DNA of 64,000 nucleotides from Candidatus Multivorans sp. Its GTDB lineage: Bacteria; Acidobacteriota; Thermoanaerobaculia; Multivoradales; Multivoraceae. The notes beneath the pieces were generated by a model. The model saw nothing but the letters and a program-made list of their open reading frames with translations, made no database searches and was not told the origin of the DNA. Numbering within the stretch: the stretch's first letter is position 1; every line of letters begins with the position of its first letter. A program made the translations under genes and the position numbers. This document shows, piece after piece, positions 2,358 through 55,806 of the stretch. The stretch is taken from assembly GCA_965247095.1 (NCBI GenBank), contig OZ251997.1, positions 384,001 to 448,000 on the forward strand. The letters run 5' to 3'.

Positions 2358-2401
2358 TCCCGCTATCCCCGTGTGTTGTCTGGTGAGGTCGTTGCCGTCG
2401 A

Positions 2402-36282: not shown

Positions 36283-36356
36283 ACCGGTCGAAGCGCAGCC
36301 TGCGCGGCAGCTATGATCACGGCAGGCAGTTGAACACGGTGGTTGGAGGGCAGGCA

Positions 36357-37445: not shown

Positions 37446-37508
37446 TCGGTTCGGCGTTTCGCTGAGCGCGTTGCGCCGCCTTTTGCGGACGCGGGCGAGC
37501 GTCCTGCG

Positions 37509-37898: not shown

Positions 37899-37899
37899 C

Positions 37900-38187
37900 T
37901 CAGTCTCGTGCCGCCTCCCGGCGTCGCTCGGCGATGAAGGCGTCGACTTCGCTCCCCGATGAACTTGTGCCGTGCTTCCGGGCAAGGGCCTGGGCGCGGG
38001 CGACTGCCGCGTCCACCGCCGTTTCCACGGTTGTTATCCGGATCGTGTCGCCTTCGAGATCGAGGATGACCTTCTGTCGAGGCTGAAAACCCAATGCCGC
38101 GCGAAAATGGGCTGGTACTACGAGCCGGCCTGCGGAGTCGATGATGGTGGAAGTCTGTGCGGGAGCGGGTGTGGGATCATCTGCCAT
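37900..38187 (-). CDS. vapB: AbrB/MazE-type antitoxin
   Basis: IDSAGRLVVPAHFRAALG, FIAERRRE; directly upstream of vapC. Confidence 0.88.
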   Translation of the reverse strand: MADDPTPAPAQTSTIIDSAGRLVVPAHFRAALGFQPRQKVILDLEGDTIRITTVETAVDAAVARAQALARKHGTSSSGSEVDAFIAERRREAARD

Positions 38188-38198
38188 AGCGCAGGAGT

Positions 38199-38312
38199 CT
38201 ACCATTGTGGCGCAGAATGGGAGGGTGCTCGGCTGTACCACGGGAGTGAGAGTAGTGGCCAGTCGCTGGGGCCAACGGTCAGCACGGCGGAGGGACGGAC
38301 AAAGGTGATCAC
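38199..38312 (-). pseudogene. Truncated fourth copy of the ABC-2 permease
   Basis: GTG start, MITFVRPSAVLTVGPSDWPLLSLPW versus MITVLRLSAVLIGGPRYWLLPLLPLPW, then a stop. Confidence 0.7.
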
Positions 38313-38361
38313 GCCGTCGCTCCGCCGTGCGTTGCCCGTATCGGCGGGTCGGTCGGCCCGG

Positions 38362-38658
38362 CTACACGCAGATCGTCATGCTCCGGAAGGTCAGGTGCAT
38401 CCCGACGGCGGTCAAGAAGGGGGAGCCAAGAGCCTGGCCGACGGCCGTAAGGAGCGCTCCGGCGACCGAGTCGGTCCTGCAACTGTGGCTCCGCGCTCCT
38501 CCAGCCACTCTCGTCAGGTCGGTGACCGTGAGCTGGTCGAGGCCATCGTGGCCGATGGTCGAGGTGCCGCCCGCCATCACGGCGTCAGGCGGTGTGGCGA
38601 AGGAAGCGCCGACGCTCAATACAAGGGCGATCGATGCAGTGGCTAGGAATCTCGTCAT
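38362..38658 (-). CDS. Putative bacteriocin-like precursor B (98 aa: signal, GG-type leader, 2-Cys core)
   Basis: RBS gaaagga; MTRFLA..SFA signal; GLDQLTVTDLTRVAGG; ends TICV; aligns with 40844..41146. Confidence 0.75.
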   Translation of the reverse strand: MTRFLATASIALVLSVGASFATPPDAVMAGGTSTIGHDGLDQLTVTDLTRVAGGARSHSCRTDSVAGALLTAVGQALGSPFLTAVGMHLTFRSMTICV

Positions 38659-38861
38659 GTCCAGTGGTCCTTTCGGTTGTAGAGGGTTGGGGGTAGCCAG
38701 GTGGTGGAGGCCGCTGTCCGCGGCTCTCGAGCCACCTATGGACCAAGACGGAATCGGCGCGGCTCCGTTCGTCTCGGTCACTTCGGTCCGAGCCGGCAGG
38801 GTCGTGTCCTTGCCTTGCTGTGAGCATGAGCCGCCCGACCGGAGGAGCCCGGGAAGCGGGC

Positions 38862-39551
38862 TCAGCCGCTGAGCATCTGCTCGCGGCGCTCCGCACGGGC
38901 GAAGGTCAGGGCGACGATGGCGGCGATGATGAGGGCAATGCCTATACGGTTCTGGACGGCCATGGTGAGCAACTGCTCGGCGTCGCCCCCTTTCACGGCG
39001 AGCGGGTTCCACAATGGCGAGATGCGCGGCTCGACCGAGAGGTATGCCATTCGAAGGTTCGGGGCGAGTAGTGCCATGGTTGCCATTGCGCCGGTGACCT
39101 CGCTTCGGAAGAGGGTGGCGAAACCCATCGCTGCTACCAGGTAGAAAGCGGCTCCCTGCGCCGTGCCGTAGATGGTCTGAACAACTGGAAAGGAAGTGAA
39201 GAAAGCAAAGGTAAGCACCGCCGTCGGCGTCAGACTTGCAAACAGGATCAGCCCTGCGGCAGCGAGTTTTCCGGTCCATACGCGACGGGTGCCGCCGGGT
39301 ACGGTGTAGGCGATCTCCAGGGTGCGCTCGTCGAGTTCGCCGGCGATGATCCGGCCGCCCAGGAAGACGGCGAGAACCGCGACCGGCGCACCAATCAGGG
39401 TGTTCTGTGCGTCGGCGGGCTCGAAGTTGGGCCGAAGCCCGGAGATGAGCAGTATCGCCTGAATTCCCAACCACGGCAGGGGCAGCAGCGGCAGCAGCCA
39501 GTAACGCGGGCCCCCGATCAGCACGGCGGAGAGACGGAGAACGGTGATCAT
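38862..39551 (-). CDS. ABC-2-type permease, copy 3
   Basis: About 6 TM, IAGELDERTLEIAYTVP..GKL; paralog of 39710 and 41406. Confidence 0.88.
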   Translation of the reverse strand: MITVLRLSAVLIGGPRYWLLPLLPLPWLGIQAILLISGLRPNFEPADAQNTLIGAPVAVLAVFLGGRIIAGELDERTLEIAYTVPGGTRRVWTGKLAAAGLILFASLTPTAVLTFAFFTSFPVVQTIYGTAQGAAFYLVAAMGFATLFRSEVTGAMATMALLAPNLRMAYLSVEPRISPLWNPLAVKGGDAEQLLTMAVQNRIGIALIIAAIVALTFARAERREQMLSG

Positions 39552-39709
39552 GCCGGAGCTCGGTCACCGGTCGCCTGGGCCGGCCAGAGGTAGCCGTCCC
39601 CGACCCGTCCGAGGCCATGGCTCTCGATGACCGGTGTAGTGCCCGCCACGACCGAGTTGGGCGGTACAGCGACAGAGGGGCAGACACTCAAGACAAGTGG
39701 CGACTCCTG

Positions 39710-40399
39710 CTAGCGGCTGAGCATCTTCTCGCGACGCTCCGCGCGAGCGAAGGTCAGGGCGACGATGGCGGCGATGGTGAGCGCGATGCCGATGCGGTTC
39801 TGGATGGTCATGGCGAGCAACTGCTCGGCGTCGGCTCCTTTCACGGCGAGCGGGTTCCAGAACGGCGAGATGCGCAGGTGCCCGCCGAAGCCGGTCACAG
39901 AGCCGTTCAAGCCGAATAGCGCAATCGTGACCAAGGCACCGCTCACCTCGCTGCGGAACAGCGTGGAGAAACCCATCGCCGCGGCTAGGTAGAAGCTGGC
40001 TCCTTGGCCAGCACCGTGGAGGGTCTGGACGACCGGAAACGCGGTGAAGAAGGCGAACGCCAGAACAGTCATCGGGATCAGGCTGCCAAGCAGGATCAGG
40101 CCTGCGGCGGTTAGTTTCCCCCACCAGACCCGATGGGCGCCGCCCGGGACGGTGTAGGCGACTTCAAGGGTGCGCTCGTCGAGTTCGCCGGTGATGATCC
40201 GGCCGCCGAGAAACACAGCGAGGATCGCTACTGGCGCACCGATCAAGGTGTTCTGTGCAGCGGCGGGTTCGAAGCCGGGACGGCCGGTGAACAGCAACAG
40301 CACCGCCTGAAGGCCTAGCCAAGTCAGTGGCAGCAGAGGTAGCAGCCAGTATCTTGGCCCTCCGATCAGCACGGCGGAAAGACGGACAACGGTTCTCAT
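39710..40399 (-). CDS. ABC-2-type permease, copy 2
   Basis: Same motifs, 229 aa. Confidence 0.88.
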   Translation of the reverse strand: MRTVVRLSAVLIGGPRYWLLPLLPLTWLGLQAVLLLFTGRPGFEPAAAQNTLIGAPVAILAVFLGGRIITGELDERTLEVAYTVPGGAHRVWWGKLTAAGLILLGSLIPMTVLAFAFFTAFPVVQTLHGAGQGASFYLAAAMGFSTLFRSEVSGALVTIALFGLNGSVTGFGGHLRISPFWNPLAVKGADAEQLLAMTIQNRIGIALTIAAIVALTFARAERREKMLSR

Positions 40400-40523
40400 T
40401 GCAGCTCTCCCCCGCGGGTTGCTTGGCCCGACCGGAGGTAGGTGTCTCTAGGCGGCGCGACGCCTCCTTCGCCTTGCATGTAGAGGGTGGTGGGCGGAGG
40501 GACTGGGGTGCAGGTACTCCGGT

Positions 40524-40733
40524 TCAGCATGTCCCGTCGCGACGAGCGGCCATCCTGCCGACGATCCAGAGAGCTGGCAGCGAGAAGAGGGATGCGATGG
40601 CGACGAACAGGACCGGAGAACCGCCGACGAGGGCCAACAGCCGACCGCTCAACCAGCTTCGCCCGAAGGCGCTGCCCGGGGCAGGTCGCAGCGGCCGGTA
40701 GGGGCGGCTTTGTAGGTCCATGAACGTCGCCAT
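40524..40733 (-). CDS. Small single-TM peptide (possible accessory or immunity protein)
   Basis: RBS ggaagga, ATG 40733, hydrophobic LLALVGGSPVLFVAIASLFSLPALWIV segment. Confidence 0.4.
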   Translation of the reverse strand: MATFMDLQSRPYRPLRPAPGSAFGRSWLSGRLLALVGGSPVLFVAIASLFSLPALWIVGRMAARRDGTC

Positions 40734-40843
40734 CGAGTCCTTCCAAACAGGAGCGTGATGCGCTATCCGCCCGCCTCTTTCCGGGGCCGAAGCCGGCACC
40801 CGCAATCAGAGAGTCTCATCGAGCGAGACGGCGCCGTTGTTGG

Positions 40844-41146
40844 CTAGACACACACAGCGTCCGCGAGGAACGGACCGGCCAACCCGGCAGCGTGCATGAG
40901 CCCCCTGCCCGTGTAGATCCCTACGAAGACAAAGGCCTCGCCCGTCGTCTCAAAAGCAGCAGTGCAAGCTCCGGACCACCAAGCTGCTCCCATCACGCCG
41001 ACCATCTCGGCATCCGCGAGTTGTTCGAGCCCGGGATTGTCGACGCCCGGATAGTCGCCCGCCACGGCCGTGACAGGCGGTTCTGCGAAGGCGCCGCCGA
41101 CACTCAGTACAAACGCTGCCACTGCGATAGATAGAACTTTCTTCAT
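40844..41146 (-). CDS. Putative bacteriocin-like precursor A (100 aa: signal, GA-type leader, 2-Cys core)
   Basis: RBS gaaagga; MKKVLS..AFA signal; GLEQLADAEMVGVMGA; ends AVCV. Confidence 0.78.
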   Translation of the reverse strand: MKKVLSIAVAAFVLSVGGAFAEPPVTAVAGDYPGVDNPGLEQLADAEMVGVMGAAWWSGACTAAFETTGEAFVFVGIYTGRGLMHAAGLAGPFLADAVCV

Positions 41147-41405
41147 GATTCTTGTTCCTTTCCGTTTCATGGGTTCTTGTTGCCGTCGACCCCTTCGGAG
41201 AGGCCGACGACGCTGGTAGACGGGAAGGTCCTGCGGAAGCCGAGGAGGCTTCGCAGGTCCACCGCCGCGCAGCGCCTTACGGCGTGCAGGGACTGTGGAC
41301 CGCCTATAGACCTATGACGGAATTCGGAGCGGCTTTTTCTGGCGAGGACCCTGAGAGGGGGCTGGGTGGCAGTGGCTGCGTGTCAGGTCGAGGGCGGAAC
41401 CCGGC

Positions 41406-42098
41406 TCAGCCGCCGAGCATCTTCTCGCGGCGTTCGGCGCGGGCGAATGTCAGGGCGACGATGGCGGCGATCGCGAGGGCGATGCCGATCCGGTTCTGGA
41501 CGCTCATCGCGAGCATCTGGTCGGCGTCGGCTCGGTCCACCGAGAGGGGGTTCCAGAACGGCGAGATGCGGAGGGGGTTTTCGCCGAAGCCGGTGATCAG
41601 GCCGTTGAGGCCAAGGAGGCCGGTCGTGGTCAGGGCGCCGGCCACCTCGCTGCGGAACAGGGTGGCGAGCCCCATGGCTGCAACCAGGTAGAAGGTGACG
41701 CCCTGGGCCGCGCCGTAGAGACTCTGGAAGACGGGGAAGGAGGTGAAGAAGGCGAACGTGACGGACGCCATCAAGGCCAGACTGGCGAGTAGCAACAGGC
41801 CGGCTGCGGCGAGCTTGCCGAGCCAGACGCGGTGAGCGCCGCCGGGTACGGTGTAGGCGATCTCAAGAGAGCGCTGGTCGAGTTCGCCGGTGATGATCCG
41901 CCCGCCCAGGAACACGGCGAGAACGGCCACCGGCATTCCGATCAGTGTGTTCTGGGCGGCGTCACGTTCGAAGCCCGTCGCGGCGCCGGCCAACAGCAGG
42001 ATCGCCTGCACGGCTAGCCACAGTAGCGGCAGCAGGGGCAGCAACCAGTAGCGCCGCCCTGCCAGCAGCACCGCGGACAGACGCAGCACGGCGATCAC
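41406..42098 (-). CDS. ABC-2-type permease, copy 1
   Basis: GTGA overlap with the RND-ABC fusion stop; about 6 TM; ITGELDQRSLE. Confidence 0.9.
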   Translation of the reverse strand: MIAVLRLSAVLLAGRRYWLLPLLPLLWLAVQAILLLAGAATGFERDAAQNTLIGMPVAVLAVFLGGRIITGELDQRSLEIAYTVPGGAHRVWLGKLAAAGLLLLASLALMASVTFAFFTSFPVFQSLYGAAQGVTFYLVAAMGLATLFRSEVAGALTTTGLLGLNGLITGFGENPLRISPFWNPLSVDRADADQMLAMSVQNRIGIALAIAAIVALTFARAERREKMLGG

Positions 42099-45000
42099 GT
42101 CGGGGCTCTGCCGCGCGCCGCCTGCGCCAGCCAGAGGTAGCCGTCCTCGAGCGTGGGTTCGACTGGTTCGGCCCGCCGATCGGGGCGGTCGGCAGCCAGC
42201 ACGCGCAGGCGGCTGCTGCCGTCGGGTTCCGGTTGGCGATCGGCGAGCACGGACGCCTCGGGAAGCTCCGGCTCCTCATCTCCGGGCGCCGTCCATGACC
42301 AGACACGGCCTTCGGCCTCTCGGGACAGCGCCGCCGGCTCGCCGTCGAACACCATGCGGCCGCCGGTGAGCACCAGTACGCGCTCGCAGGCCACCGCCAC
42401 GTCCTCGACGACGTGGGTCGAGAAGAGGACGATGCGGTCCTTGGCCAGGCGCGAGAGCAGGTTGCGGAAGCGGACGCGCTCGCGTGGGTCGAGGCCGACG
42501 GTCGGCTCGTCGACGACGATGATCGGCGGCAGGCGCAACAGCGTGCGGGCCACCGCGACCCGCTGCCGCATGCCGCCGGAGTAGCCGCCGATCGGTTCGT
42601 CCGCTCGCTCGTCGAGTCCGACTTCGCGCAGCAGGGAGCCGATGCGCTCCGCTCGCTCCGACGCCTCGATCTGGTAGAGCGCGGCGTAGTACTCGAGGTA
42701 CTGCCGGGCCGTCAGGCGCGCCGGCAGGCCGGCGTCCTGCGGCAGGTAGCCGACGTAGCGGGCCAGCCGTTTCCGTATCCTGAGCAGGGGCACGCCGCCC
42801 AGCGTGATCCGGCCGCGGGTCGAATCCAGAATGCCGGTCACCTGGCGGAGCAGGGTCGTCTTGCCCGCGCCGTTCGGACCCAGCACGCCGACCATGCCCC
42901 GCTCGACATCGAAGCTCACCGCGGCCAGCGCCTTCACCGTGTCGATCGGCAGATCGAGACCGAAGATCCGGGTTGCTGCCGCCCGCCAGAGGCGGATCAA
43001 CATGCCGCGCCAGCCACGGGTGCGCCGGCGGCGGGTTGACCGCTGCTCCCGGCGCACCGTCTCGAGACGGGCCGTGCGACGTCCGAGTTGGATCAGAAGG
43101 ATGATCGTGGAGAGGATGGCCACGACGATGAACCCGCCCACCGCGGGCTCGGTGGCGAGAGCCGGACCGACCAGGCCCGCGAGAAGCGCCCAGGGCAGCA
43201 GGGCGGACAGAACGCCCTCGATGCCGCCCGGCTCGACTCGACCAAGCGCGTCGGCGCGGCCGCGGGCACGCCGGACCTCGGTCAGCAGCCGGGAAGCGAT
43301 CAGCAGTGCGGCAATCCAGGCGCCCAGTTGGATCAGGTCGGCACGGAACCTCATGGCCAGGGCGACCGCGCCGGCGAGCAACAGGAGCAAGGGCAGGATG
43401 CGGTCCCGCGCGTCGGCGGGGTGGAAGGCCTGACCGCCGCGGTCGACGACCTGCTTGGCGAAGTCGGTCGATGCCCGCAGCGCCCGGCGCACCGGCCCCG
43501 GCCGGCCGTAGGTCTTGCGCAGGTGACGGACCACCAGCCGGGGCGGTCCGGCGTCGGCCTCCGGTTCCGGTGTCGGCGGTTTTGGCACCAGCCACACGGT
43601 GAGCCCGAGCAGGGCGCCGGCGATGAGCACGGTCGTCGTGACCTGCCAGAACATGGACTCGATCACGCCGAGAACGAACAACGGGGCGGTGGCCGCGATC
43701 ACCGCGCCGAGCCAGGTCAGAACCACCCAGGGTCCGACGCGGCTGAAGACATCGTCCAGGCGCCGCAGAAAGACGTAGCCGACCGGGATGACGAGCAGCG
43801 TGAGCACGGTCGAGGTCAGAAGACCGCCGATCACCAGGGTCGCGAAGGGCGGCCAGAGCTCGTTCTCGCGTCCCGTGGCGATGGCCAGCGGTGCGAGCGC
43901 CGCGATCGTCGTCGCGCTGGTCATCAACACCGGACGCGCGCGCTCGCGAACCGCGGCCAGGGCGGCGGCGCCCGCACTCCAGCCGGCGCCGAGTACCCGT
44001 TGCTGCATCCGGTCGACGAGCAGAACCGCCGGGTTCACCGCCAGCCCGAGGAGGACGAGCGCCCCGAGCAGCGCCATCGGATCGAGCCCGATGCCGGAGA
44101 ACATCAGCGCCCACAGCGAGCCGAGCAGGGCGAGCGGCAGCGCGAGCAGAACAAGGATCGGCAGGGTCATCGACTCGAACGCCACCGCCAGAACCAGGAA
44201 CACGAGCATCACGACCGGCGCCAGGACGCGCCGGAACCAGCTCGTGTTCTCGTCCGAGCGGTCGAGCTCGATTGTCGTTCCGGGCGGACGGTGGATGCTG
44301 GCAAGCGCCTCGTCCAGGTTGCGGTCGAATTCCAGCCGCGCCGGTCCGCCGCTTGGTACGTCGGACGAGACGCTGTAGATGACCTCCCGCTCGCGGCGGC
44401 CGTTGTGGTGTGTGATCACCGGGGAAGCCGGCGCGCGGCGCACCTGCGCCAAGGCGGCTACTGGCAGGACGCCAGCGCTCGTGGAGACGCGGAGCCGGGA
44501 CAGGCCGCTCAGCGACGCCTCGCGCTCGAAACTGCTGCCGTCCACGACCCGGGCGTCACTGGGTCGGTTCTCCGCGCGCTGGACGACGATCGGAAGCTCA
44601 CGGCCGTTCGGAAGCGGGAAGCCGCTGTTGATGCTCGTACCCTCACGGCCGGCGAGACTCAGCATCGGCAGCACATCGTCGAGCAGGACGCCGAAGGTGT
44701 CGAAGGCGCGACGGTTCGGGCTGACGTGGATCTCGTCGGGGCCGGGCCGTGAGGCTAGAAAGGCGCCGCTGATCCCCTCGATCTCCTTGAGCCGCTCGGC
44801 GACCTCCGTGGCCAGACCGGTCAACTGGTCGTTGTCGTTTCCGGACAGGATGACCCGTTTCGGCCCTGCCCCGAGCAACTCCTGGGCGCCGCCGCCACCG
44901 CCGGGACCGCCGCCCCGACCGCCCGGGCCTTCGCCTTCGCCGGGTCGCAGAATCTCGGTACCGGCGCGCCGGTTCGCGGCCCGGCGTACGAGCTGACGGA

Positions 45001-46912: not shown

Positions 46913-46925
46913 GTCGCTTTCCGGT

Positions 46926-49900
46926 TCAGGCGCCGGACGGGTCGCGGCGGCGCCGGGTCAGTCGCATCGAGTCGAGTATCAGGTAGAGGCAGGGCAGCAC
47001 GAGGAGCGAGCCGACGGTGGAGGTGAGGATGCCGCCGATGATCGTGTACGCCATCGGGCTTCGCAGTTCCGCGGCTTCGCCGGCGCCTATGGCAAGCGGC
47101 GCCAGGACCAGGACAGTGGTCAGGGTCGTCATCAGGATCGGCCGCAGGCGGATCGCGGCGGCCCGGGCCAGTGCGGTGCGCCGCTCCATGCCGGCGGCGA
47201 GCAGCCGGCGGGCGGTGGCAATCAGGAGGACCGCGTCGTTCACCGCCACGCCCGCGAGCACGATGAGGCCGAGCAGCGCCATGACACCGACCGGCCGTCC
47301 GAGGAAGCCGAGGGTGCAGGCGACGCCGACCAGGGCCAGGGGGATCGAGAACAACACCGTGAGCGGTTGGAGCAGGGACTCGAACGTTCCGGCGAGGACC
47401 ATCAGCACGAGAACGAGCGCCAGCAGCCCCGCCCAGCGCAGTTCGCCGACGGCGCGCTCGCGTTCCTCTTCCTCGCCGGCGAGACGGACGATCAGACCGG
47501 AGGGCAGGTCGGTTGCTGCGATCGTCTCGCCGGCTGCCGCGATCGCGCGCGGGTAGTCGCTGTCGTCGGCGACCCGGGCGGTCACCTGGGCGACGCGGCG
47601 CTGGTCGCGGCGGAAGACCTCGCGGGCGCCCTCGGCGGGGACGAAGCGGGCGACTTGGCCGAGGGCGAGGTCCGCGCCGTCGTTGCTCGTGAAGCGCAGT
47701 TTGGCGAGTTCCTCGGGCCGCGGCTGGGGCAGAGAGAGGACGACGTGGCGCTCCTCGTCTCCAGTCGAGAGCAGGGTGACCCTGCGGCCGTCGAGTGCGG
47801 CCTGGAGCACCCGGGCGATCGTTTCCAGGCCGACGCCGAGGCCGTCGGCCATCGCGCGGTCGAGTTCGATCCGCAGTTCCGGCGGTCCGCCCTCGAACGA
47901 GGAGCGGACGTTCCAGAGTTCGGATCGCACAGCCATCGCGTCGCGCAACCTGGTGGCCGCCAGGCGCAGGTCGGGCAGCGACTGGCCCGCGATCTCGACC
48001 ACGATCGGCGGTCCCGCGGAGCCGAGCGCGCGCGATAGCGCCGACGCCCCGACCTCCCACTCGATCTCGGTATCCGGCAGGTCTTGGAAGTTGGGCTGCA
48101 GGGCGGTCACGATCTGGCCGCCGGTCGGCCCTTCGGCGGACAGCCGGACGAGCAGGCGGGCCGTGTTCTCCTCAGTCAGCTCCGTGGTCACGAGCCGATC
48201 GTCCTCGGGCAGGCGGCCGACCTCGGCCTGGATCGCCTGCAGGTGCTCGCCGGCAGCCTGCCTGACCGCCTCTTCCAGCGTCGCCACGGCGCCGGCGGTG
48301 GCCTCGACGCGCTGGCCGGGCGGGCCGACCATGCGCACCGAGAACTGCCGCGGGTCGGCAGGCGGCAGCAGTTCGCTGCCCAGTCCGAGCAGAACGTAGA
48401 CGGCGCCGGCGGCGGCGAGCACCGCCACTCCGACGACCAGCCAGCGAAGCTGAAGCAGGCCGAGAACCAGGCGCTCGACGGCGCCGAAGGCCCAGCCCAG
48501 CGGACGCGCTTCGTCTTCGTCAGCGTCCACCGGCATGCTGATGGATGCCGCCGCCGATGCGTCGGCCGTGGGCTCGGGCGCGGCGGTTTGCGGTTTGGCG
48601 CGCGGCAGGAGCCAGCGCGACAGGGCCGGAATCAGCATGATCGCGACCGCCAGGGAGGCGCCGAGGGAGGCGGTGACGGTGAAGGCGATGCCTTCGATCA
48701 GGCGCGCCGCCAGACCCTGGACGAAGAGGACGGGCAGGAAGACAACGCACGTAGTGAGCGTCGAGGCGGCAATCGCGCCCGCGACCTCGCCCGTGCCCCT
48801 GGCGGCCGTGTCGGCTGCCGAGGCGCCGGGGCGGTGGCGGCGGTGGATGCTCTCCACGACGACGATCGCGTTGTCGACCAGCATGCCGGCGCCGAGCGCC
48901 AGCCCGGCCAGGGTGATGATGTTCAGAGAGTGCCCCCACAGCCGCATCGCGAACAGCGCGACGAACAGGGACACCGGCACCGCTGAAGCGACGACCAAGG
49001 TCGGACCGAGGGAGCGCAGGAACAGCGCCAGCACGACGACCGCCAGGGCGATGCCGATCAGCGCCGCGTTCGTCAGGTCGTCCATCGCGTCCTCGATCAG
49101 CGCGGCGTCGTCGTTGACCATCGAGACGAGGACCCGGGGCAGGTCGCGCTCGAGGTCGTCGAGCGCCGCGCGCACGGTGCGCGAGACCTCCACGGTGTTG
49201 GCGCCCGCCTCCTTGAACACCTGCAGGCCGACGCCCTCCTGGCCGTTCACCCGCACCAGGTGGTCGATCTCGGCGTGTGCGAGTTCGACCGTGGCGACGT
49301 CGGAGACCCGGATCGGCTGACGGACCTGCCGGCCTCCCTCCGCCTGCTGGGTGCGGTAGCGCACGACGACCCGCTCGACATCGCGGGAGTTCCGGAACCG
49401 GGAGATGCCTCGAACGAGATAGACCTGACCGCCGTCCTCCAGGGTGCCGGCGTCGATGTCGACGTTCTCGGCCACGAGGCGTTGCTCCAGTTGGTCCAAG
49501 GTGACGCCGAACGCCTGCAGGCGGTAGCGGTCGACGCGTACGCGGACCTCCAGTTCCCGCCCTCCGAGGACCCGCACCTCGGCAACGTCGGCGAGCTGCT
49601 CCATGGCCGGCGCCACCTGACGGCGCGCCAGGCGGCGGAGCTCGGCGAGATCAGGTCCTTCCGGCTCGGCGGCCAGCCCAAGGGTGATCACCGGCGACTG
49701 CCTCGGATCGAGTTGGCGGACCAGGACCTCGTCGACTTCGGGGTCGGCCGCGACCGGATTGACCGCCTTCTGCACGTCGATCAGCGCCAGGTCCATGTCG
49801 GCGTCCCAGTCGAAGCGGACGGTGGCGATCAGGCGGCCGGTGCGGGCGACCTGGTGCACCTCGCGGAGGCCGCGCACCGTGAACAGGCGCTGCTCGACCT

Positions 49901-50120
49901 GCTCGCCGTAGAGCCGCTCCATCTCGGTCGGCGGCCGGTCGCCGGAACGCACGGCGACGACGATGGTCGGCGAACGCAGGTCGGGCAGGAGGTCGATCGG
50001 CAGTTCACGCCACGACATCCAGCCCACCAAGGCGAATGCCAGGGCGGTGACGGTGACCGCTACGGGCCGGCGCGCAGCCAGGCGGGCGGGGCCGAAGGTC
50101 TCACCGGATGTTCGAGTCAT
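46926..50120 (-). CDS. RND (AcrB-family) permease
   Basis: LPIDLLPD, GMLVDNAIVVVE, RLRPILMTTLTT. Confidence 0.95.
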   Translation of the reverse strand: MTRTSGETFGPARLAARRPVAVTVTALAFALVGWMSWRELPIDLLPDLRSPTIVVAVRSGDRPPTEMERLYGEQVEQRLFTVRGLREVHQVARTGRLIATVRFDWDADMDLALIDVQKAVNPVAADPEVDEVLVRQLDPRQSPVITLGLAAEPEGPDLAELRRLARRQVAPAMEQLADVAEVRVLGGRELEVRVRVDRYRLQAFGVTLDQLEQRLVAENVDIDAGTLEDGGQVYLVRGISRFRNSRDVERVVVRYRTQQAEGGRQVRQPIRVSDVATVELAHAEIDHLVRVNGQEGVGLQVFKEAGANTVEVSRTVRAALDDLERDLPRVLVSMVNDDAALIEDAMDDLTNAALIGIALAVVVLALFLRSLGPTLVVASAVPVSLFVALFAMRLWGHSLNIITLAGLALGAGMLVDNAIVVVESIHRRHRPGASAADTAARGTGEVAGAIAASTLTTCVVFLPVLFVQGLAARLIEGIAFTVTASLGASLAVAIMLIPALSRWLLPRAKPQTAAPEPTADASAAASISMPVDADEDEARPLGWAFGAVERLVLGLLQLRWLVVGVAVLAAAGAVYVLLGLGSELLPPADPRQFSVRMVGPPGQRVEATAGAVATLEEAVRQAAGEHLQAIQAEVGRLPEDDRLVTTELTEENTARLLVRLSAEGPTGGQIVTALQPNFQDLPDTEIEWEVGASALSRALGSAGPPIVVEIAGQSLPDLRLAATRLRDAMAVRSELWNVRSSFEGGPPELRIELDRAMADGLGVGLETIARVLQAALDGRRVTLLSTGDEERHVVLSLPQPRPEELAKLRFTSNDGADLALGQVARFVPAEGAREVFRRDQRRVAQVTARVADDSDYPRAIAAAGETIAATDLPSGLIVRLAGEEEERERAVGELRWAGLLALVLVLMVLAGTFESLLQPLTVLFSIPLALVGVACTLGFLGRPVGVMALLGLIVLAGVAVNDAVLLIATARRLLAAGMERRTALARAAAIRLRPILMTTLTTVLVLAPLAIGAGEAAELRSPMAYTIIGGILTSTVGSLLVLPCLYLILDSMRLTRRRRDPSGA

Positions 50121-50159
50121 CGTGCCGGGCTCCGGTGGTCAGAGCTGCCGAATCGGTTC

Positions 50160-51260
50160 TTATTGGGAAACCCGGACGCGGGTGCCGTCGGTCAGGGTTT
50201 CGAGGCCGCGAACGACGACCCGCTCGCCGAGCTCCAGCCCCTGGCGAATCTCGGTGATCTCGTCGTCGCCGAGACCGAGAACGACTTCGCGCCGCACCGC
50301 GCGCTGGCCGTCGAGGACGAAGACGACGCGCCGGCCGCCGCGCTCGGTAACCGCCTCGCGCGGAATGACGGGGACGTCGTTGCGCTGCTCGACGACCAGG
50401 GTCACTTCGACGAACATGCCCGGCCGCAGCAGGCCGCCGGGATTGCGCACCGCCACCTCGGCGCGGAAGGTGTGGGTGACCGGGTCGACCTCGGGGGACA
50501 GGCGGACGACCCCGCCTTCGAACGTCTGGCCCTCCCAGGCGAAGTGCCTGAGCCGGCCCCGCTGCCCGGGGTGGACCCGCGCCAGTTCGGGGCCCACGAG
50601 GTCGATGTCGGCGATCAGGGAGGCGACCGGAGCGATCCGGGCCACCTGGAAGCCCCGGGAAACGAGCTGGCCGTCGGCGATCGGCATGCCGTTCGGGTCG
50701 CGGGCGAGTTCCATCAGCACGCCGCCGATCGGGGTCAGCATCTTCGCGCGGTCCTCGGTAAGCAGGCTCTGCTCCCAGGTCGCCTTCGCGTCTTCGAGCG
50801 CGATCTCGGCGCGGCGCAGCTCTTCGGCACTGATCAGTTCCTGCTCGAACAGCTTGGCGCGGGCGTCGCGTTCGGCCTCGGCGCCCAGGTAGGCTTGGTG
50901 GGTCGCCTCGACCCGGGCCGCGAGCCGTGCGTCCTCGCCGGTGACCTCCGCGATCATCTGCTCGGGGACGACGCGGTCGCCTTCGGCCAGCCGGTCGCCG
51001 GAACCGTTGCGGCCGATCAGCAGTCTCCCCGGCGTCTCGACCTGCAGGACGATGCTCTCGGCCGCTCGCAGAGTGCCGGTGGCGACGATCAGATCCTCGA
51101 CGTTGCCGGTTTCGACCTCGGCCGCGGTGACCGGCACCAGGAAGTCGACGGGGTCCGTGCTGCCGCCGCCTTCGCAGGCGACGATCACGGCGCAGGCGGC
51201 TATCGCGAGGCCCGCATGCCGGAGGCCGGCGATCGGGCGGGAGGGCTGCCGCGGGCTCAT
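50160..51260 (-). CDS. RND periplasmic adaptor (membrane fusion protein), lipoprotein
   Basis: IVAC lipobox, EGDRV, VDPVTHTF, LRPGMF, GLELGERVV. Confidence 0.92.
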   Translation of the reverse strand: MSPRQPSRPIAGLRHAGLAIAACAVIVACEGGGSTDPVDFLVPVTAAEVETGNVEDLIVATGTLRAAESIVLQVETPGRLLIGRNGSGDRLAEGDRVVPEQMIAEVTGEDARLAARVEATHQAYLGAEAERDARAKLFEQELISAEELRRAEIALEDAKATWEQSLLTEDRAKMLTPIGGVLMELARDPNGMPIADGQLVSRGFQVARIAPVASLIADIDLVGPELARVHPGQRGRLRHFAWEGQTFEGGVVRLSPEVDPVTHTFRAEVAVRNPGGLLRPGMFVEVTLVVEQRNDVPVIPREAVTERGGRRVVFVLDGQRAVRREVVLGLGDDEITEIRQGLELGERVVVRGLETLTDGTRVRVSQ

Positions 51261-54200
51261 AGCCCCGCGCCCCCGGTCTCGGCGCGGCCGGCGGCGGCGC
51301 TGTTGTCGAGCCGCACGAAGCGCACCGCGTCCGCGGCGACCGCTTTGCCGGAGGTCTCGTCGCTCAGGACCAGTTCGGTCGGGCCGCCGGCCAGATCGAA
51401 GTCGCCCAGCACCGCCCATCCCGCGCCCGCGGCCGCGGCGTCGAAGTCGATCGGCCGGGAGACGCCGCCGTTCTGCAACTCCAGGTCGTAGGTGCCGAGA
51501 GCCAGCCCCAGGTTCACCGAGACCCGTACGCCGCCGTCGTCGTCCCCTCCTCTTCGTGGTGCGTCTCCACCTCCGTCGCCGACCCGCACTTCCCGACGCA
51601 CGGCCGTGGCGCCGGCTGGCAGGGGCGAGAGCGACGGCACGTGCAGTTCGACCCGCCAGCGGCCGTCTGCCGGCAACTCCGTCCGGTAGATCGCGCGGCT
51701 GTTCCCTTCGCCCGCGGGCGCCAGGGCGGTCGTGCGGCGGTAGCGGCCCCAACTGGTGGGCTGTGCGTAGCGCGACCATTCGGTCGGCGGTCCGCCGAAG
51801 CTCTGGTAGACGAGCAGACCCTGATCCGTCTGGTTCGACGGCGCGAAGAAGCCAGCGAGACCGCCCTGCAGCCGGAAGCCGCCGGCATCCGCTTCATCCG
51901 TCTCGATCGAGAAGCCGGGGTCCAGGTCGTCGACGACGATCATGTCGGTCGTTGACTCGAGGAAGGCGGGCAGCCAGTCGGCCGGCCGCGTGCCGCGCAG
52001 TGGTTCGGCATCGACGATCGTCTCGTTGTTGACGCTCGGCAGATCGATCGGGAACTCCCGGCGGTTCAGCGACAGGTAAGGTGAAGCCAGCATCCTGCCC
52101 GGCACCCTGGAAGTGACCAGACCGAATTCGACGGAGCTGTTTCCCGGGATCAGGGTCGGCTCGCTGGACTCCCAGCGCACGCCGCTCGGTGCGCGGACGG
52201 CGTAGCGGAGCCGGAACAGGCCCGGAGCCTCCTCGCCGTTGTGGACGAAGAGACGGGTCTGGTACTGCGGCAGGCCCTGGTCGTCGTCCGCCAGCCGCAC
52301 GAGTTCGGCGGGGGATACGACGAAGCCCGGCAGGTCGGTCTGGTGGAGGAAGTCGCCGACCAGGCCGGCGAGGTCCAGGCCGGCTTCCTGAGCGGCCCGT
52401 TCGAGGTCGGCGGCGGTGAAGGTCGATCCCCGGTGGTCGCGCATGAGGTTCGCGAGCATCGCGGCGGTCCGTTCCCGGCCGGCGCCGTCCAGAATTGCGC
52501 CGGCAAGGGCCGAAGTCTTCAGATAGAGCGCGTTCAACGCTTTCTTCGGCTCCTCTTCGACGTCCATTTCCGTCAGCGAGGCGCCGAGAACGGCGTCCCA
52601 TACCTCGGGGCGGTCGGTGAGGCTCTGTACGATGGTGCTGGAGACCGAGGAGGCGCCTCCGCCGAGCTGGCTGAAGATGGCGCCCTGCAACACGCTGGCG
52701 ATCGTCCAGCCGAACTCGCGGTCGAACAGGTGGGCCGAGAAGTACGATTCGCCGCCGTTCACCAGCCGGTTCACCAGGTTGTTGCACAGTTCCTCGAGCG
52801 CCAGCGCCTCCGGACCGCGGGCGCCGGTCTGGTACATGAACAGATTGCGGACACCGCCGACCTCCACGTTGCCGCCCGAGAAGTCGTTGCGGAAGAACTG
52901 CTGCAGCCCGGAGGCCTTTGCCCGGGGCAGACCGCCCTCCTGCTCCTCGAACCGCTCCGGGTTGCGGAACAGGAACTCGAAGCGAGCGGTCGGCAGGCTG
53001 CTCTCGCTGAGCAGCAGCATGCCCGGCGGCGCGCGCTCGGTGTCCATCCGCCAGCCGCCGCCGTAGGAGCGCAGGGTCCAGGGAACTTCAACCAGGGTGA
53101 GCTGACGGTAGGGGTAGGGCAGGCCCAGCTCGCGCGCGCTGGTGAAGCGCTCGGCGGCGACTGCCTCGATCTCTTCCCGGGCGTCGGCGAAGAGCTCCAC
53201 GTTTCTCAGATGGCGGGGGTGGAGGAGCAGTTCGATCTCGACGCCCTCGACCTCCGTCGTCCGGCGATCGAACCGACCGGCGACCAGGGCCGCTTCGGGC
53301 ACGACTGCCACGGGTGCGAACCGTTGCCGTTCGCCGGCCGGCTCGGCTCTGCCTGGCCCGGCGACCGTCCAGCCCGAGGGGGCGCCGACCTCCAGGTCGA
53401 GTTCGAAGAAGTCTCTGGGACGCCTTCGCGGATCGGTGAGGCCGACCGACGTGCCGGGGCGCGGCATCCAGGCCAGCGCGGCGGGCAGCGCGACGTAGCG
53501 GCGCTCCGCAAAGCCGTTCAGGGCGCCGAGAAGGATGATCTGGGCGTCCTGGAACTTGATCCGGTTGAAGTCGATCGCGGAATCCAGGTACGCGAAGCGA
53601 AGGTCGGGCCGTCCGTGGGCGCGCAGGCGAAGGTCGACGGCCTCGCCCGCGGCCGGCGAGCGCCCGAGGTCGACCTCGAGCAGGCCGTCGCGGTGGTTGA
53701 ATCCGAGCGTCGCGCCGGCGGTATCCTCAATGGCGTCGACCTGGAGGCCGGGGTTCAGGCTGAAGAGAGCCTGCGAACCGCCGGCGGCGAGGAACCGGAC
53801 GTTGACATCGAGGGTCAGGCGGCCGCGCGGTGCGATGTCGACGGCGCCGTGGATCTGTTCCAGGTCAAGGACCGGTTCGCTCTGGCGTGCCGTGTGGGCG
53901 ATGCGCCAGTCGTCGATTTCGTCGACCCGGTTGCCGGCCGTGACCGCGGCGGCTGCGATCGTTCCGATGGCCGCCGCCAGGAGGCCGGCGCCGGCGGTGG
54001 CCCACAGGCGTCGCCGGGTGTCGTCGAGCCGGGGATGGACGGCGACGGCGACCGCAAGCATCCCAACGGCCAGCGCCGCGACCGTGGCCCGGTTCATCAA
54101 GTTGAAGGCGGTCCAGATCTGGGGCGCGACCTCGGAAGGATTGGTGCCGAAGCCGCCGTTGATCGCCAGCATCGGCAGGACGTAGGTCGGCACGCGGAAG

Positions 54201-54808
54201 GAGAGAAGCATCGGCCCGATGGCCAGCCCGAGGCCCAGGAGCGCGGCGACCAGGCGGTTGCCGCTCAGGAGTGACGCCACATGGACGAAGGCGATGGTCA
54301 GAGCCAGCGCCGGCAGCGCCTCGGTCAGCAGGTAGGCCCAGACGGAACTCCAGATCGCCGGTTCGCCCACGTACCAGCCGAGCGCCACGCCGAGATGGCC
54401 GATGCCCTGGATGATCATCATGCCGATGAAGGCGACGCCCCAGATCATGATCAGGGCGCCGAGGAAGCGGCCGAGGACGAGTTCGGCGTTCGAATAGGGC
54501 CGGCTGTCCAGGACCTCGATGACGCGGTCGCGCCGGTCCCGTGCGCGCAGATCGAAGGCCAGGAACACGACGCCGATCGCGAGAACCATCGTCTGCGTCG
54601 AAGCCATCTGAGCGAGCAGGAACTTCGGGCTCATCGCGCCGACCGTCGCCGAGAACGACGAAAAGAGGCCGTGGATAACCCAGTAGTAGCCGTACGACAC
54701 CAAGCCGACGAGGAGTGCGAGGCCCGAGAACAGCCAGAAGCGGAACAGCCGGCGGAGGGTGCGCATCTCGGCGCGGGCCAGCGACCAGACGGCGGCGAGT
54801 GAGATCAC
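51257..54808 (-). CDS. ABC permease + M1-aminopeptidase-like + C-terminal CBM/golvesin-like fusion
   Basis: N-terminal TM bundle (RDRRDR..E..SRP), FSLNPGL, LPYPY..LVEVP, C-terminal IVVDDLDPGF..GWAVLGDF..ADAVRF; no HEXXH seen. Confidence 0.78.
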   Translation of the reverse strand: MISLAAVWSLARAEMRTLRRLFRFWLFSGLALLVGLVSYGYYWVIHGLFSSFSATVGAMSPKFLLAQMASTQTMVLAIGVVFLAFDLRARDRRDRVIEVLDSRPYSNAELVLGRFLGALIMIWGVAFIGMMIIQGIGHLGVALGWYVGEPAIWSSVWAYLLTEALPALALTIAFVHVASLLSGNRLVAALLGLGLAIGPMLLSFRVPTYVLPMLAINGGFGTNPSEVAPQIWTAFNLMNRATVAALAVGMLAVAVAVHPRLDDTRRRLWATAGAGLLAAAIGTIAAAAVTAGNRVDEIDDWRIAHTARQSEPVLDLEQIHGAVDIAPRGRLTLDVNVRFLAAGGSQALFSLNPGLQVDAIEDTAGATLGFNHRDGLLEVDLGRSPAAGEAVDLRLRAHGRPDLRFAYLDSAIDFNRIKFQDAQIILLGALNGFAERRYVALPAALAWMPRPGTSVGLTDPRRRPRDFFELDLEVGAPSGWTVAGPGRAEPAGERQRFAPVAVVPEAALVAGRFDRRTTEVEGVEIELLLHPRHLRNVELFADAREEIEAVAAERFTSARELGLPYPYRQLTLVEVPWTLRSYGGGWRMDTERAPPGMLLLSESSLPTARFEFLFRNPERFEEQEGGLPRAKASGLQQFFRNDFSGGNVEVGGVRNLFMYQTGARGPEALALEELCNNLVNRLVNGGESYFSAHLFDREFGWTIASVLQGAIFSQLGGGASSVSSTIVQSLTDRPEVWDAVLGASLTEMDVEEEPKKALNALYLKTSALAGAILDGAGRERTAAMLANLMRDHRGSTFTAADLERAAQEAGLDLAGLVGDFLHQTDLPGFVVSPAELVRLADDDQGLPQYQTRLFVHNGEEAPGLFRLRYAVRAPSGVRWESSEPTLIPGNSSVEFGLVTSRVPGRMLASPYLSLNRREFPIDLPSVNNETIVDAEPLRGTRPADWLPAFLESTTDMIVVDDLDPGFSIETDEADAGGFRLQGGLAGFFAPSNQTDQGLLVYQSFGGPPTEWSRYAQPTSWGRYRRTTALAPAGEGNSRAIYRTELPADGRWRVELHVPSLSPLPAGATAVRREVRVGDGGGDAPRRGGDDDGGVRVSVNLGLALGTYDLELQNGGVSRPIDFDAAAAGAGWAVLGDFDLAGGPTELVLSDETSGKAVAADAVRFVRLDNSAAAGRAETGGAGL

Positions 54809-55806
54809 TGTCGGGCCTCCTCTCCGGAGGTCGTGTCGCCTGCGTCCGCGTCCGCCGATCCTTCGCCGCCATCGGACCGAGCGTTGTGGGCGGCTTTGTT
54901 CCCGCCGAAGTGCTCATCGGTCACCAGGGCTTCGGCACGACCGCGCGCGACCATGAAGGCGAGGTATCCCTCCTCGAGGGTCGGCGACGAGGCGATCCGC
55001 GCTCGTGCCGGTACGCCGCCGGGCGCCGCGACGGCGCGGTAGGTCGTTTCGTTCATGCTGACGGTGCGCGAGACGATCTCGAAGCCGCCTTCGGGCTGCG
55101 GCGCGGATGTCGGCAGGGTCAGCTCGAACACCTGGCCCTGGGCGCGCTCAAGCAGTTGGGTGGGGGAGCCGCGAAAGACGATCTTGCCCGCGTCGAGCAG
55201 GGCGAGGTCGTTGCAGCCGGTGCCCAGGTCGGCGACGATGTGGGTCGAGAGGATGATCGTCCGCTCGCGGCCGAGGCTCGCCATCAGTTGGCGGAAGCGG
55301 AGCCGCTCCTCCGGGTCCAGACCGACCGTGGGTTCGTCGACCACCAGCAGGCGGGGTTGGTGGATCAGCGCCTGGGCGATGCCGAGGCGGCGGGTCATGC
55401 CGCCTGAGAGCTTCTTCACCTTGCGGTGCGCGACCTCGCCCAGGCCGACGCTGTCGAGGACGGAATCGACGCGGGCCCGGCGGGCGCCGCGGTCGTCCAG
55501 GCCGGAGAGCTCGGCCAGGGTGTCGAGGACCTCCTCCACGCGGTGCAGACGCCAGGCGCCGAATTCCTGCGGCAGATAGCCGAGATGTGCGCGGACGCCG
55601 CGCCGCTGCGAGACCACGTCGTGGCCGAAGACGGTTGCCGTCCCGCCGCTGGGCTTGAGCAGCGTGCAGACGATCCGCATCAGGGTGCTCTTGCCGGCGC
55701 CGTTGGGGCCCAGCAGGCCGAAGAGACCCGCGCCGATCTCCAGATCGACGCCGTCGAGAGCTACTGTGCCGCCGCGATAGACGTGGCGGAGGCCGCGCGC
55801 GGCCAC
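54805..55806 (-). CDS. ABC transporter ATP-binding protein
   Basis: GPNGAGKST, LSGGM, VVDEPT, LSTH. Confidence 0.96.
   Translation of the reverse strand: MAARGLRHVYRGGTVALDGVDLEIGAGLFGLLGPNGAGKSTLMRIVCTLLKPSGGTATVFGHDVVSQRRGVRAHLGYLPQEFGAWRLHRVEEVLDTLAELSGLDDRGARRARVDSVLDSVGLGEVAHRKVKKLSGGMTRRLGIAQALIHQPRLLVVDEPTVGLDPEERLRFRQLMASLGRERTIILSTHIVADLGTGCNDLALLDAGKIVFRGSPTQLLERAQGQVFELTLPTSAPQPEGGFEIVSRTVSMNETTYRAVAAPGGVPARARIASSPTLEEGYLAFMVARGRAEALVTDEHFGGNKAAHNARSDGGEGSADADAGDTTSGEEARQ

Follow-up and report, generated by a model that had tools for sequence, protein, structure and literature searches.

A covalent RND-ABC fusion in a conserved efflux operon and the polymorphic peptide-permease cassettes that follow it in Candidatus Multivorans-like Acidobacteriota

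Introduction

How does energy couple in a single protein that joins an RND (resistance-nodulation-division) pump to an ABC (ATP-binding cassette) ATPase? In the accepted view, protons power RND pumps and ATP powers ABC pumps, and the question is raised by covalent RND-ABC fusions that are present in at least three phyla. Here, we address one such fusion, which is encoded in a 64-kb stretch of DNA from Candidatus Multivorans sp. (positions 384001-448000 of a single-contig genome of 4.62 Mb; this entire stretch is referred to as the window). The fusion gene is part of a minus-strand operon that is followed by an array of small peptide genes and further permease genes, and the locus therefore raises a second question, namely what the peptides have to do with the pump. 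A preliminary description, made from the sequence alone, had proposed a candidate new export system in which operon and array form a composite complex for the secretion, sensing or immunity of a polymorphic peptide family.

Based on the analysis reported here, we conclude that the core genes encode a conserved efflux module, so far uncharacterised, in which an RND pair and an ABC-2-type transporter are physically linked. This pump is not dedicated to the peptides, nor are they its native substrate. For the array, we favor, at a probability of about 0.5, a reading in which the peptides would be bacteriocin-like, exported by Sec, disulfide-bonded and matured by a C39 peptidase, and in which they would be accompanied by cognate plug-in permeases that use the fused ATPase of the pump. 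This reading draws on direct observations of gene content, conservation, family features, co-variation and linkage to C39 genes.

Results

The RND-ABC fusion is part of a conserved operon

The core operon comprises six genes that run on the minus strand from position 55806 to 41406 in the order ATPase1, PermFus, adaptor, RND1, RND2-NBD2 and Perm1, as assigned by calls of open reading frames (ORFs), Pfam and NCBIfam (Table 1). At three of the five core junctions (ATPase1/PermFus, PermFus/adaptor and RND2-NBD2/Perm1), neighbouring genes share 4 nt, with the stop codon overlapping the next start, and the other two junctions (adaptor/RND1 and RND1/RND2-NBD2) have gaps of 39 and 13 nt. The minus-strand genes named in the preliminary description are thus all present and tightly coupled, and the RND-ABC ATPase fusion that it reported is real and consists of one ORF.

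In the fusion, RND2 is joined via six extra transmembrane (TM) helices to a second ABC ATPase, NBD2. TM12 of the RND part is followed by two TM helices, the first strand of NBD2 (RLVVRHLRKTYG), an insertion of four TM helices and, finally, the remainder of NBD2. The insertion spans ~190 aa and includes a strongly conserved, putatively cytoplasmic loop. These linker segments are kept across 17 homologues, down to about 53% identity. A model of the linker-NBD2 region (pLDDT 78.1, pTM 0.61) has a beta strand at RLVVRHLRKTYG and long helices on the four hydrophobic stretches, and the strand is predicted to pair with the ATPase sheet. The fold matches of the NBD2 model are ordinary ABC ATPases (best 4yer_A, E 4.4e-21). 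When the C-terminal 546 residues of the fusion were used as the query, 8000 candidates were scored and 1316 of them reached E ≤ 0.001. The best 120 of these 1316 relatives all have both PF00873 and PF00005, most are 1570-1640 aa long and their names are generic; the pair of domains is already labelled by database annotation pipelines. An assembly artefact as the source of the RND-ABC architecture was considered and is ruled out by the conserved single-ORF homologues. Among the fusion homologues, P0062-P0064 are longer (1840-1876 aa) and additionally have sigma-70 region 4 domains (PF04545, PF08281).

To compare loci, contigs from one genome per species were used: 600 pattern matches were taken, at least 336 of them encode a fusion relative, and 79 loci were kept. 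The close relatives carry the labels Candidatus Multivorans, Thermoanaerobaculia or Holophagales (all Acidobacteriota) and are referred to as the clade; the distant loci are from Vicinamibacterales, Polarisedimenticolaceae, Pseudomonadales, Azotimanducaceae and Desulfatiglans-type genomes. Acidobacteriota, Gammaproteobacteria and Desulfatiglans-type genomes share the order of the six core genes. A permease gene lies immediately after NBD2 in 32 of 36 clade loci and in 37 of 38 informative distant loci, while the genes upstream of the fusion are RND1 (30/32 clade and 26/28 distant loci), the adaptor (30/31 and 25/27) and PermFus (30/31 and 22/27). ATPase1 orthologues with 59-68% identity are located directly upstream of PermFus in four of five distant genomes, and the ATPase1-PermFus pair is at another genomic site in the fifth. 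In two Desulfatiglans-type loci (L045 and L078), a gene for an outer-membrane factor (OMF) lies directly after Perm1. In a Desulfobacterota-type locus (L070, 12707-14680), genes for an HlyD-family adaptor and a further ABC ATPase follow Perm1 in place of the OMF.

Within Acidobacteriota, the distribution of the fusion is patchy. The linker is present in 15 of 301 sampled genomes, including four of four from the same genus, and in none of the genomes from the same order or class that were listed in this sample. In open-access full text, with TCDB outside the search, we found no literature on an RND-ABC fusion, on the genus or on an ABC-2/M1 fusion. No characterised transporter matched the locus in the searches run. 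Because RND2 is covalently fused to the ATPase of the ABC-2-type transporter, the RND pair is physically tied to this transporter.

Components of the core pump

In ATPase1 as well as in NBD2, the catalytic motifs (Walker A, signature, Walker B with D-E, H-loop) are all intact. The adaptor passes the RND_mfp model (TIGR01730) with 157.1 bits at a cut-off of 94.9, and its probable start is the ATG at 51260 rather than the longest-ORF start at 51779. The matches of RND1 and RND2 to ACR_tran are full-length, with 662.8 and 465.2 bits at a cut-off of 28. Alignment to E. coli AcrB gives, in AcrB numbering, D407, N408, N940, D941, R971 and T978 in RND1, and the same residues in RND2 except for P941; N is present at 408 and 940 in 14 of 14 RND1 and 13 of 13 RND2 sequences. 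Hence, the AcrB-type proton relay (D407/D408/K940/R971/T978) is incomplete in both proteins, with D407, R971 and T978 retained. RND1 and RND2 thus depart from the AcrB relay; a loss of proton coupling is not thereby demonstrated, since other subfamilies may use other relays.

For the ABC-2 Pfam model (PF12679 and relatives), Perm1, Perm2, Perm3 and PermFus score 23.0, 17.2, 25.0 and 21.2 bits, all below the cut-off of 27.2. The six hydrophobic segments of the permeases and their position beside an ABC-2-type ATPase are compatible with an ABC-2 permease. There is no OMF gene in the window, as the preliminary description had noted, and at least five are present elsewhere in the genome.

PermFus has a hydrophobic part at residues ~1-292, which accounts for the match to ABC2_membrane_2, and a C-terminal Golvesin_C domain (37.1 bits, cut-off 31.6). 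For the 884 residues that follow the hydrophobic part, a model was built with 31 sequences as input (pLDDT 79.9, pTM 0.81). In Foldseek, the model matched IRAP (5mj6_A, E 1.6e-20), EryP (7v9p_B, 5.8e-19), which is a lanthipeptide leader peptidase, and E. coli PepN (4xo4, 3.9e-17), with a TM-score of about 0.4 over roughly 650 columns. No HE..H is present anywhere in PermFus, and the HEXXH(+E) zinc site is thus missing; Pfam gave no match to Peptidase_M1 even at E ≤ 10, and the match to E. coli PepN in hhalign was weak, at a probability of 3%. An Atlas search returned Golvesin_C look-alikes together with a lead of 0.84 to Peptidase_M1, and a sequence search of the PDB gave nothing usable. The earlier label "aminopeptidase-like" is thus supported for the fold and fails for the zinc motif: the model indicates an M1-aminopeptidase fold without a zinc site, that is, a predicted pseudo-peptidase rather than an enzyme. 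The soluble part is probably periplasmic because an arginine-rich loop precedes the last helix. A PermFus paralogue of 1176 aa and 70% identity is encoded elsewhere in the genome, beside the ATP synthase operon (L113 9255-13126, corresponding to G000:C1:2581254-2585125). The ATPase1 copy next to it has shrunk to 114 aa by an internal deletion, and its N-terminal 58 aa are 95% identical to ATPase1.

The peptides share a leader and two cysteines

Profile searches identified 52 peptide matches in the loci, 46 of which are full-length. The latter share a basic N-terminus (K or R within the first six residues in 46/46), a short hydrophobic stretch, a variable spacer, a double-glycine (GG)-type leader and a core of 37-46 residues; an AxA-like site is present in 35. 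In the consensus of GG leaders, position -2 is G, positions -4, -7 and -12 are hydrophobic and position -8 is acidic. All 46 peptides have G at -2 and hydrophobic residues at -4 and -7, 42 have D or E at -8 and 40 have L at -12. Position -1 is G or A in 28 peptides and R, E or K in 18, and the leader is not at the extreme N-terminus, but is preceded by the signal-like segment and spacer of about 38 residues. The peptides therefore follow the consensus at -2, -4, -7, -8 and -12 and depart from it in G/A/S at -1 and in the N-terminal position of the leader. The core is hydrophobic, consists of 31% Gly plus Ala and has exactly two Cys in 46/46. The proposed polymorphic family with a double-glycine-like leader is thus borne out.

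The family is variable, with an entropy of 2.23 bits in the core, 2.28 in the spacer and 1.40 in the signal, and crude pairwise ratios of nonsynonymous to synonymous substitution (dN/dS) are close to 1.0 in the core and 0.7 in the region before it. It is also small: 56 clusters reached E ≤ 0.01 in a search of 5.8 billion proteins, and those few that have a name from their source are called "hypothetical protein"; a second search returned 31 representatives at E ≤ 0.001 in 1.84 billion proteins.

Peptide-permease cassettes are inserted behind Perm1

Downstream of Perm1, the window contains, in this order, PepA, a gap of 447 nt, Perm2, a peptide remnant, Perm3, PepB, a permease stub of 27 codons and an AbrB/MazE-PIN gene pair. 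The repeated unit is a peptide plus its downstream permease. The array of repeats described before is therefore confirmed and its unit redefined; the peptide remnant between Perm2 and Perm3 had been overlooked, and "permease 4" is real but very short. By contrast, the 93-aa "small TM ORF" that had been counted as part of the unit falls away as a gene: its sole homologue is the identical cassette copy in L030 (100% identity), which provides no independent support.

Cassettes were found in the Candidatus Multivorans-like clade only. At least one peptide is present in 28 of 35 main loci and none in the other seven, and the copy number is variable. The usual layout is Perm1 followed by peptide-permease repeats, commonly with a peptide last, and the site of the array is constant in 28 of 28 carriers, i.e. 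between Perm1 and the AbrB-PIN pair where this pair is present. Profile searches gave no peptide match in any of the 43 distant loci, 38 of which extend at least 800 nt past NBD2. Thus, the gene order is conserved across clade and distant loci, while the downstream peptides are confined to the clade. Because the peptides are absent from these 43 loci and from seven of 35 clade loci, the pump must have another primary role, and the idea of one machine built for the peptides does not hold.

Perm1, Perm2 and Perm3 are mutually 71-75% identical and have no other copy in the genome. Upstream of Perm2 and Perm3, there is sequence similar to the 3'-terminal ~15 codons of the NBD2 gene, and an 88-nt junction repeat occurs four times, the fourth copy being at the stub of permease 4. 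From these remnants and the repeat, it follows that the duplicated unit included the NBD2-permease junction. The cassettes lack an ATPase of their own and retain the remnant of the NBD2 3' end together with the 4-nt start overlap. Accordingly, the stop codon of the ORF that combines the peptide remnant with the NBD2 tail overlaps the start of Perm3.

Clustering yielded 18 permease types (M) and 13 peptide-core types (p). Type p5 is followed by M9 in four of four cases with an intact next permease, p10 by M10 in two of two, p9 by M16 in six and by M12 in three of nine cases, and p6 by M15 in three of six. The type of the upstream Perm1 is constant within each lineage. In a maximum-likelihood tree of the linker-ATPase region, the same peptide-permease pairs occur in both major well-supported subclades, while sister loci differ in content, and therefore the cassettes were gained, lost or exchanged as units. 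In other words, the type of a peptide tracks the type of its downstream permease independently of the core phylogeny, and the co-variation suggested in the preliminary description is upheld. A Mantel test of the peptides against the upstream and downstream permeases gave r 0.45-0.54 both ways; it is confounded by position and descent and was replaced by the type clustering and the core tree. Among the 32 clade loci with a permease directly after NBD2, none has a cassette permease type at this first (Perm1) position. The layout of L007 is odd.

There are 33 full-length cassette permeases. Crude estimates of within-type dN/dS are 0.19-0.32 for these and 0.15-0.21 for the Perm1 types, suggesting that the cassette permeases are under purifying selection and functional. 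Variation among the cassette permeases peaks at residues 161-180 (1.7-2.1 bits vs 0.3-1.2 elsewhere), and hardly any is seen in the loop around EIAYTVPGG. Judged by eye, the variable stretch would lie where TM5 ends on the outer side, and the nearly invariant loop would be cytoplasmic.

Relatives of the peptides are linked to standalone C39 peptidases

The preliminary description was correct that the window has no C39 gene; the genome, however, has a single C39 match, a standalone protein of 183 aa (G000:C1:2307414-2307963) 1.9 Mb from the window. Its basic N-terminus and one hydrophobic helix suggest a membrane anchor. In this locus (L081 8919-15362, corresponding to G000:C1:2306918-2313361), a Redoxin-family gene lies just before the C39 gene and three peptide genes just after it. 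The three peptides have a Sec-like signal, a G-motif and two Cys, and two of them match the family profile at 1.8e-7 and 1.5e-4. The locus further has genes for a membrane protein of 566 aa that belongs to no family, for a DrrA-type ATPase and for a YknW/Yip1 protein. A Cys/Pro-rich, signal-bearing ORF is present there as well.

The linkage recurs in other genomes. Peptide-profile matches are present in 19 of 47 related C39 loci, and all 25 matches are on the strand of the C39 gene and downstream of it. In L031 (3247-9081) and L032 (6701-12611), a second, intact fusion gene is followed by a standalone Peptidase_C39 gene (E 2.3e-29), the product of which has an N-terminal hydrophobic anchor, and then by a family peptide with a plain GG. 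More distant relatives of the peptides thus occur independently of the pump operon beside C39 genes. Together with the homologous operons that lack peptides, this is the outcome that the preliminary description itself had said would count against a dedicated machine. Around the paralogous fusion, an IS21-type transposase pair precedes the gene and the adaptor, RND1 and PermFus are absent; in the core tree, this fusion nests inside the clade on a long branch. In L032, ApeA_NTD1 and HEPN AbiU2 genes, which are defence-like, lie upstream of this region (852-3955, minus strand).

Features and surroundings of the locus

The coordinates of the features are collected in Table 1. GC content is high throughout the window (0.65-0.73), and is 0.653-0.657 at 38-42 kb vs 0.69-0.72 across the core operon. 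At third codon positions (GC3), it is 0.68-0.81 in cassette genes vs 0.88-0.89 in the core. A scan of 37400-42400 gave no promoter-like and one terminator-like site, which is not above shuffled sequence. The left end of the stretch originally described, 38199, falls within the longest-ORF version of the antitoxin gene (37900-38241), with the PIN gene next. The AbrB/MazE-PIN pair is also present in many relatives, either after the array or, where cassettes are absent, straight after Perm1.

Table 1. Features of the pump locus, in window positions
Feature	Position	Strand	Remarks
ATPase1	54805-55806	-	DrrA/GldA-type ABC ATPase, first gene of the operon; ABC_tran 1.5e-29
PermFus	51257-54808	-	1183 aa; ABC-2-like membrane domain, M1-aminopeptidase fold (model), beta-sandwiches, Golvesin_C
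Periplasmic adaptor	50160-51260	-	RND_mfp; lipobox-like IVAC in the N-terminus
RND1	46926-50120	-	ACR_tran 1.1e-198
RND2-NBD2	42095-46912	-	1605 aa, single open frame; ACR_tran 5e-139 and ABC_tran 9.3e-27
Fusion linker	42953-43765	-	About residues 1050-1320 of RND2-NBD2; alignment of 17 homologues and structure model
Perm1	41406-42098	-	230 aa; core 6-TM ABC-2-like permease; start overlaps the NBD2 stop (translational coupling)
PepA	40844-41146	-	Type p10; Sec-like signal, GG-type leader, 2-Cys core
93-aa "small TM ORF"	40524-40805	-	Inside the PepA-Perm2 gap; unsupported as a gene
Perm2	39710-40399	-	Type M10, cassette permease after PepA; preceded by a remnant of the NBD2 gene 3' end
Peptide remnant	39552-39697 (peptide part 39602-39697)	-	Signal and leader only, joined to an NBD2-tail-like remnant
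Perm3	38862-39551	-	Type M11, cassette permease; its upstream peptide is truncated
PepB	38362-38658	-	Type p3, terminal peptide
Permease 4 stub	38238-38312	-	27 codons, N-terminal remnant; 59% identity to the Perm3 N-terminus
AbrB/MazE-like antitoxin and PIN toxin pair (VapBC-like)	37509-38241	-	Bounds the array; Pfam

Just past the toxin-antitoxin pair, two plus-strand ORFs (36057-37445, 462 aa; 35791-36282, 163 aa) have coding-like GC3 and no Pfam match. At the other end, the divergent neighbour of the operon (56029-57510, plus strand) encodes a signal-bearing protein of 493 aa with a marginal match to Cu2_monoox_C (23.5 bits, cut-off 23), and a relative with 48% identity is encoded ~7 kb downstream of the operon in L034. 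Another PIN-domain gene is located at 59200-59613 on the minus strand.

Discussion

We suggest the following model for the locus. The core would be an envelope efflux machine, in which an ABC-2-type transporter is tied to two RND proteins, which probably form a heteromer, and to an AcrA-like lipoprotein adaptor, and the outer-membrane channel would be supplied by genes elsewhere in the genome. In the Candidatus Multivorans-like clade, peptide-permease cassettes would have been added after Perm1. The pre-pro-peptides would leave the cytoplasm by Sec, a disulfide would form in the periplasm between the two invariant cysteines, and the leader would be removed at the conserved glycine by an outward-facing, membrane-anchored C39 peptidase encoded elsewhere. 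For a C39 peptidase acting in the periplasm, FapD provides a precedent (PMC5557850). The invariant cytoplasmic loop of each downstream permease variant would be its docking site on the fused ATPase, which all variants would share, while its variable, periplasm-facing segment would expel the cognate, presumably toxic peptide or hand it over, resulting in self-protection, export or both.

Several observations weigh against this model. The pairing of peptides and permeases is not one-to-one at the clustering thresholds used, as p9 is paired with two permease types that have unrelated variable loops. Of the 15 terminal p2/p3 peptides, just one has an intact permease next to it; the others are followed by nothing, by a stub (in the window, L002, L005 and L006) or by a frameshifted copy (L033), and these partnerless peptides are awkward for a strict toxin-immunity pairing. 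Conversely, intact permeases lie behind truncated peptides in the window, L027 and L030. Seven of 35 clade loci and all 43 distant loci are without peptides, so that the pump has another primary role. The C39 gene of the genome is 1.9 Mb away, and genomes without cassettes at the pump locus have C39 genes as well. R, E or K at -1, as found in 18 of the 46 peptides, is not usual at C39 sites. No curated bacteriocin or leader family was matched above threshold (7 of 31 peptides reached E 0.017-0.11), and the peptides have no Pfam match. The permeases remain below the Pfam ABC-2 cut-offs, and a sequence search of the PDB gave no solved relative. Finally, signal cleavage and all topologies were judged by eye, and the dN/dS estimates are crude.

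The main alternative differs from the favored model only in whether the permease protects or exports. Accordingly, the cassette permeases would not provide immunity, but would be dedicated export adaptors that bind the cognate pro-peptide on the periplasmic side and feed it into the adaptor/RND/OMF duct, like MacB for STII. Because a peptide without a permease would then simply be no longer secreted, the 14 of 15 terminal peptides that persist without one would be harmless. STII is exported by Sec, oxidised by Dsb and then expelled by the tripartite MacAB-TolC system in an ATP-driven manner (PMC5985334), and this serves as a precedent. The OMF gene within the operon in L045 and L078 also fits with an export duct. 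However, the intact permeases kept behind peptide remnants in the window, L027 and L030 have the look of orphan immunity genes, and the ABC-2 transporters of peptide loci, such as LanFEG and Pmt, are typically protective. Overall, we consider a pure export function unlikely. Similarly doubtful is a more far-reaching reading, in which the operon builds a single machine: two RND2-NBD2 and one RND1 would assemble into a heterotrimer, so that exactly two fused ATPases dimerise; ATP would drive or gate an RND part with a reduced proton relay via the split-NBD linker and the ABC-2 permease dimer; and, in the Multivorans-like clade, the permease position would have turned into a plug-in slot for alternative permeases that co-evolve with a new class of Sec-exported bacteriocins processed by a periplasmic C39 peptidase.

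Rather than toxins, the peptides could be secreted signals, kin-recognition tags or small periplasmic subunits that partner the permeases, for which the GG leader serves maturation alone. GG leaders are known on pheromones too, two of the peptides have weak matches to BlpC (E 0.017), and the terminal p2/p3 peptides lack a partner permease. On the other hand, the cores are hydrophobic (31% Gly plus Ala) and hypervariable (2.23 bits, crude dN/dS near 1), cassettes turn over between sister genomes, and the locus of related peptides also encodes an ABC ATPase of the DrrA type and a YknW-family protein. Because of the hypervariable cores, the turnover and these neighbours at the C39 locus, the data are a better fit to conflict systems than to signalling, and we give signalling a somewhat lower chance still. 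The lower GC and GC3 of the array, its variable presence among genomes and the peptide relatives elsewhere would be consistent with an independent island, mobile or hypervariable, that happened to arrive next to the pump along with the toxin-antitoxin pair and has no functional tie to the pump. We regard this as improbable: the cassette permeases are Perm1 paralogues (71-75% identity) without another genomic copy and without their own ATPase, the NBD2-tail junction is kept in each copy, the site is the same in all 28 carriers, and the paralogous fusion is again followed by C39 and peptide genes. Lastly, the peptide remnant and the Perm4 stub in the window and the split permease in L033 could be taken to indicate that the additional permeases and peptides have no function and are duplicates in decay. 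Yet 33 cassette permeases are full-length with within-type dN/dS of 0.19-0.32, and 46 intact peptides have the invariant G and the two invariant Cys, making general decay hardly credible.

The fusion itself is unusual in having an ATPase with a membrane-inserted, split N-terminus. If the favored model of peptide maturation and plug-in permeases is correct, double-glycine peptides would have a maturation route in which Sec comes first and is followed by a periplasm-facing C39 peptidase, and peptide specificity would have been diversified in a modular manner by swapping the permease alone on a shared motor. Because the carriers are uncultured Acidobacteria, the peptides would represent an untapped candidate family of antimicrobials.

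The locus shares design elements with several known systems. Like MdtABC, it has an adaptor followed by two RND paralogues, it has sub-threshold NCBIfam matches to MdtB and MdtC, and it needs an OMF, which is supplied in trans here and in the operon in L045 and L078. MdtB and MdtC assemble in a 2:1 stoichiometry (MdtB2C). Unlike in MdtABC, however, the second RND protein has six extra TM helices and an ABC ATPase, N is present at 408 and 940 in both RND proteins, and two ABC-2-type permease genes and a second ATPase gene are part of the operon.

CDI (contact-dependent inhibition) and Rhs loci have arrays of orphan toxin-immunity cassettes downstream. Their layout is similar to that of the peptide-permease array, with polymorphic cassettes after a conserved gene, a short copy of the junction in each cassette and a content that varies among close relatives. 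The components are unrelated, and among the 32 clade loci no cassette permease was seen to have replaced Perm1.

With regard to the peptides, class II bacteriocins and microcins exported by C39-containing ABC exporters (peptidase-containing ABC transporters, PCATs; e.g. CvaAB-TolC) have a similar leader pattern and a similarly small, hydrophobic core with two Cys. By contrast, in the system described here, a Sec-like signal precedes the leader, -1 is often R, E or K, and the C39 peptidase is standalone and anchored; no PCAT is encoded at the locus, and the sole C39 protein of the genome is not fused to an exporter. The secretion of STII by MacAB-TolC is similar in outline: a tripartite pump that uses ATP expels a disulfide-bearing peptide with a Sec signal from the periplasm (PMC5985334). 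In the present locus, the permeases are ABC-2-like rather than MacB-type, an RND pair is involved, and the peptides have a GG-type leader and are encoded in polymorphic cassettes. FapD (PMC5557850) resembles the C39 protein studied here in being standalone and periplasmic, and the latter matches NCBIfam C39_FapD at 7e-14, under the cut-off. The FapD system is without GG peptides and without ABC or RND partners, and the C39 protein studied here would have a TM anchor instead of a cleaved signal.

Finally, LanFEG, PmtABCD and YknWXYZ are ABC-2-type or related transporters that shield producers from membrane-active peptides. The ATPases have sub-threshold matches to PmtA and to lantibiotic-protection families, and a YknW-family protein is encoded in the C39 locus. 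The difference from these transporters would lie in the design of the motor: several alternative permeases are predicted to share one ATPase, which is itself part of an RND protein.

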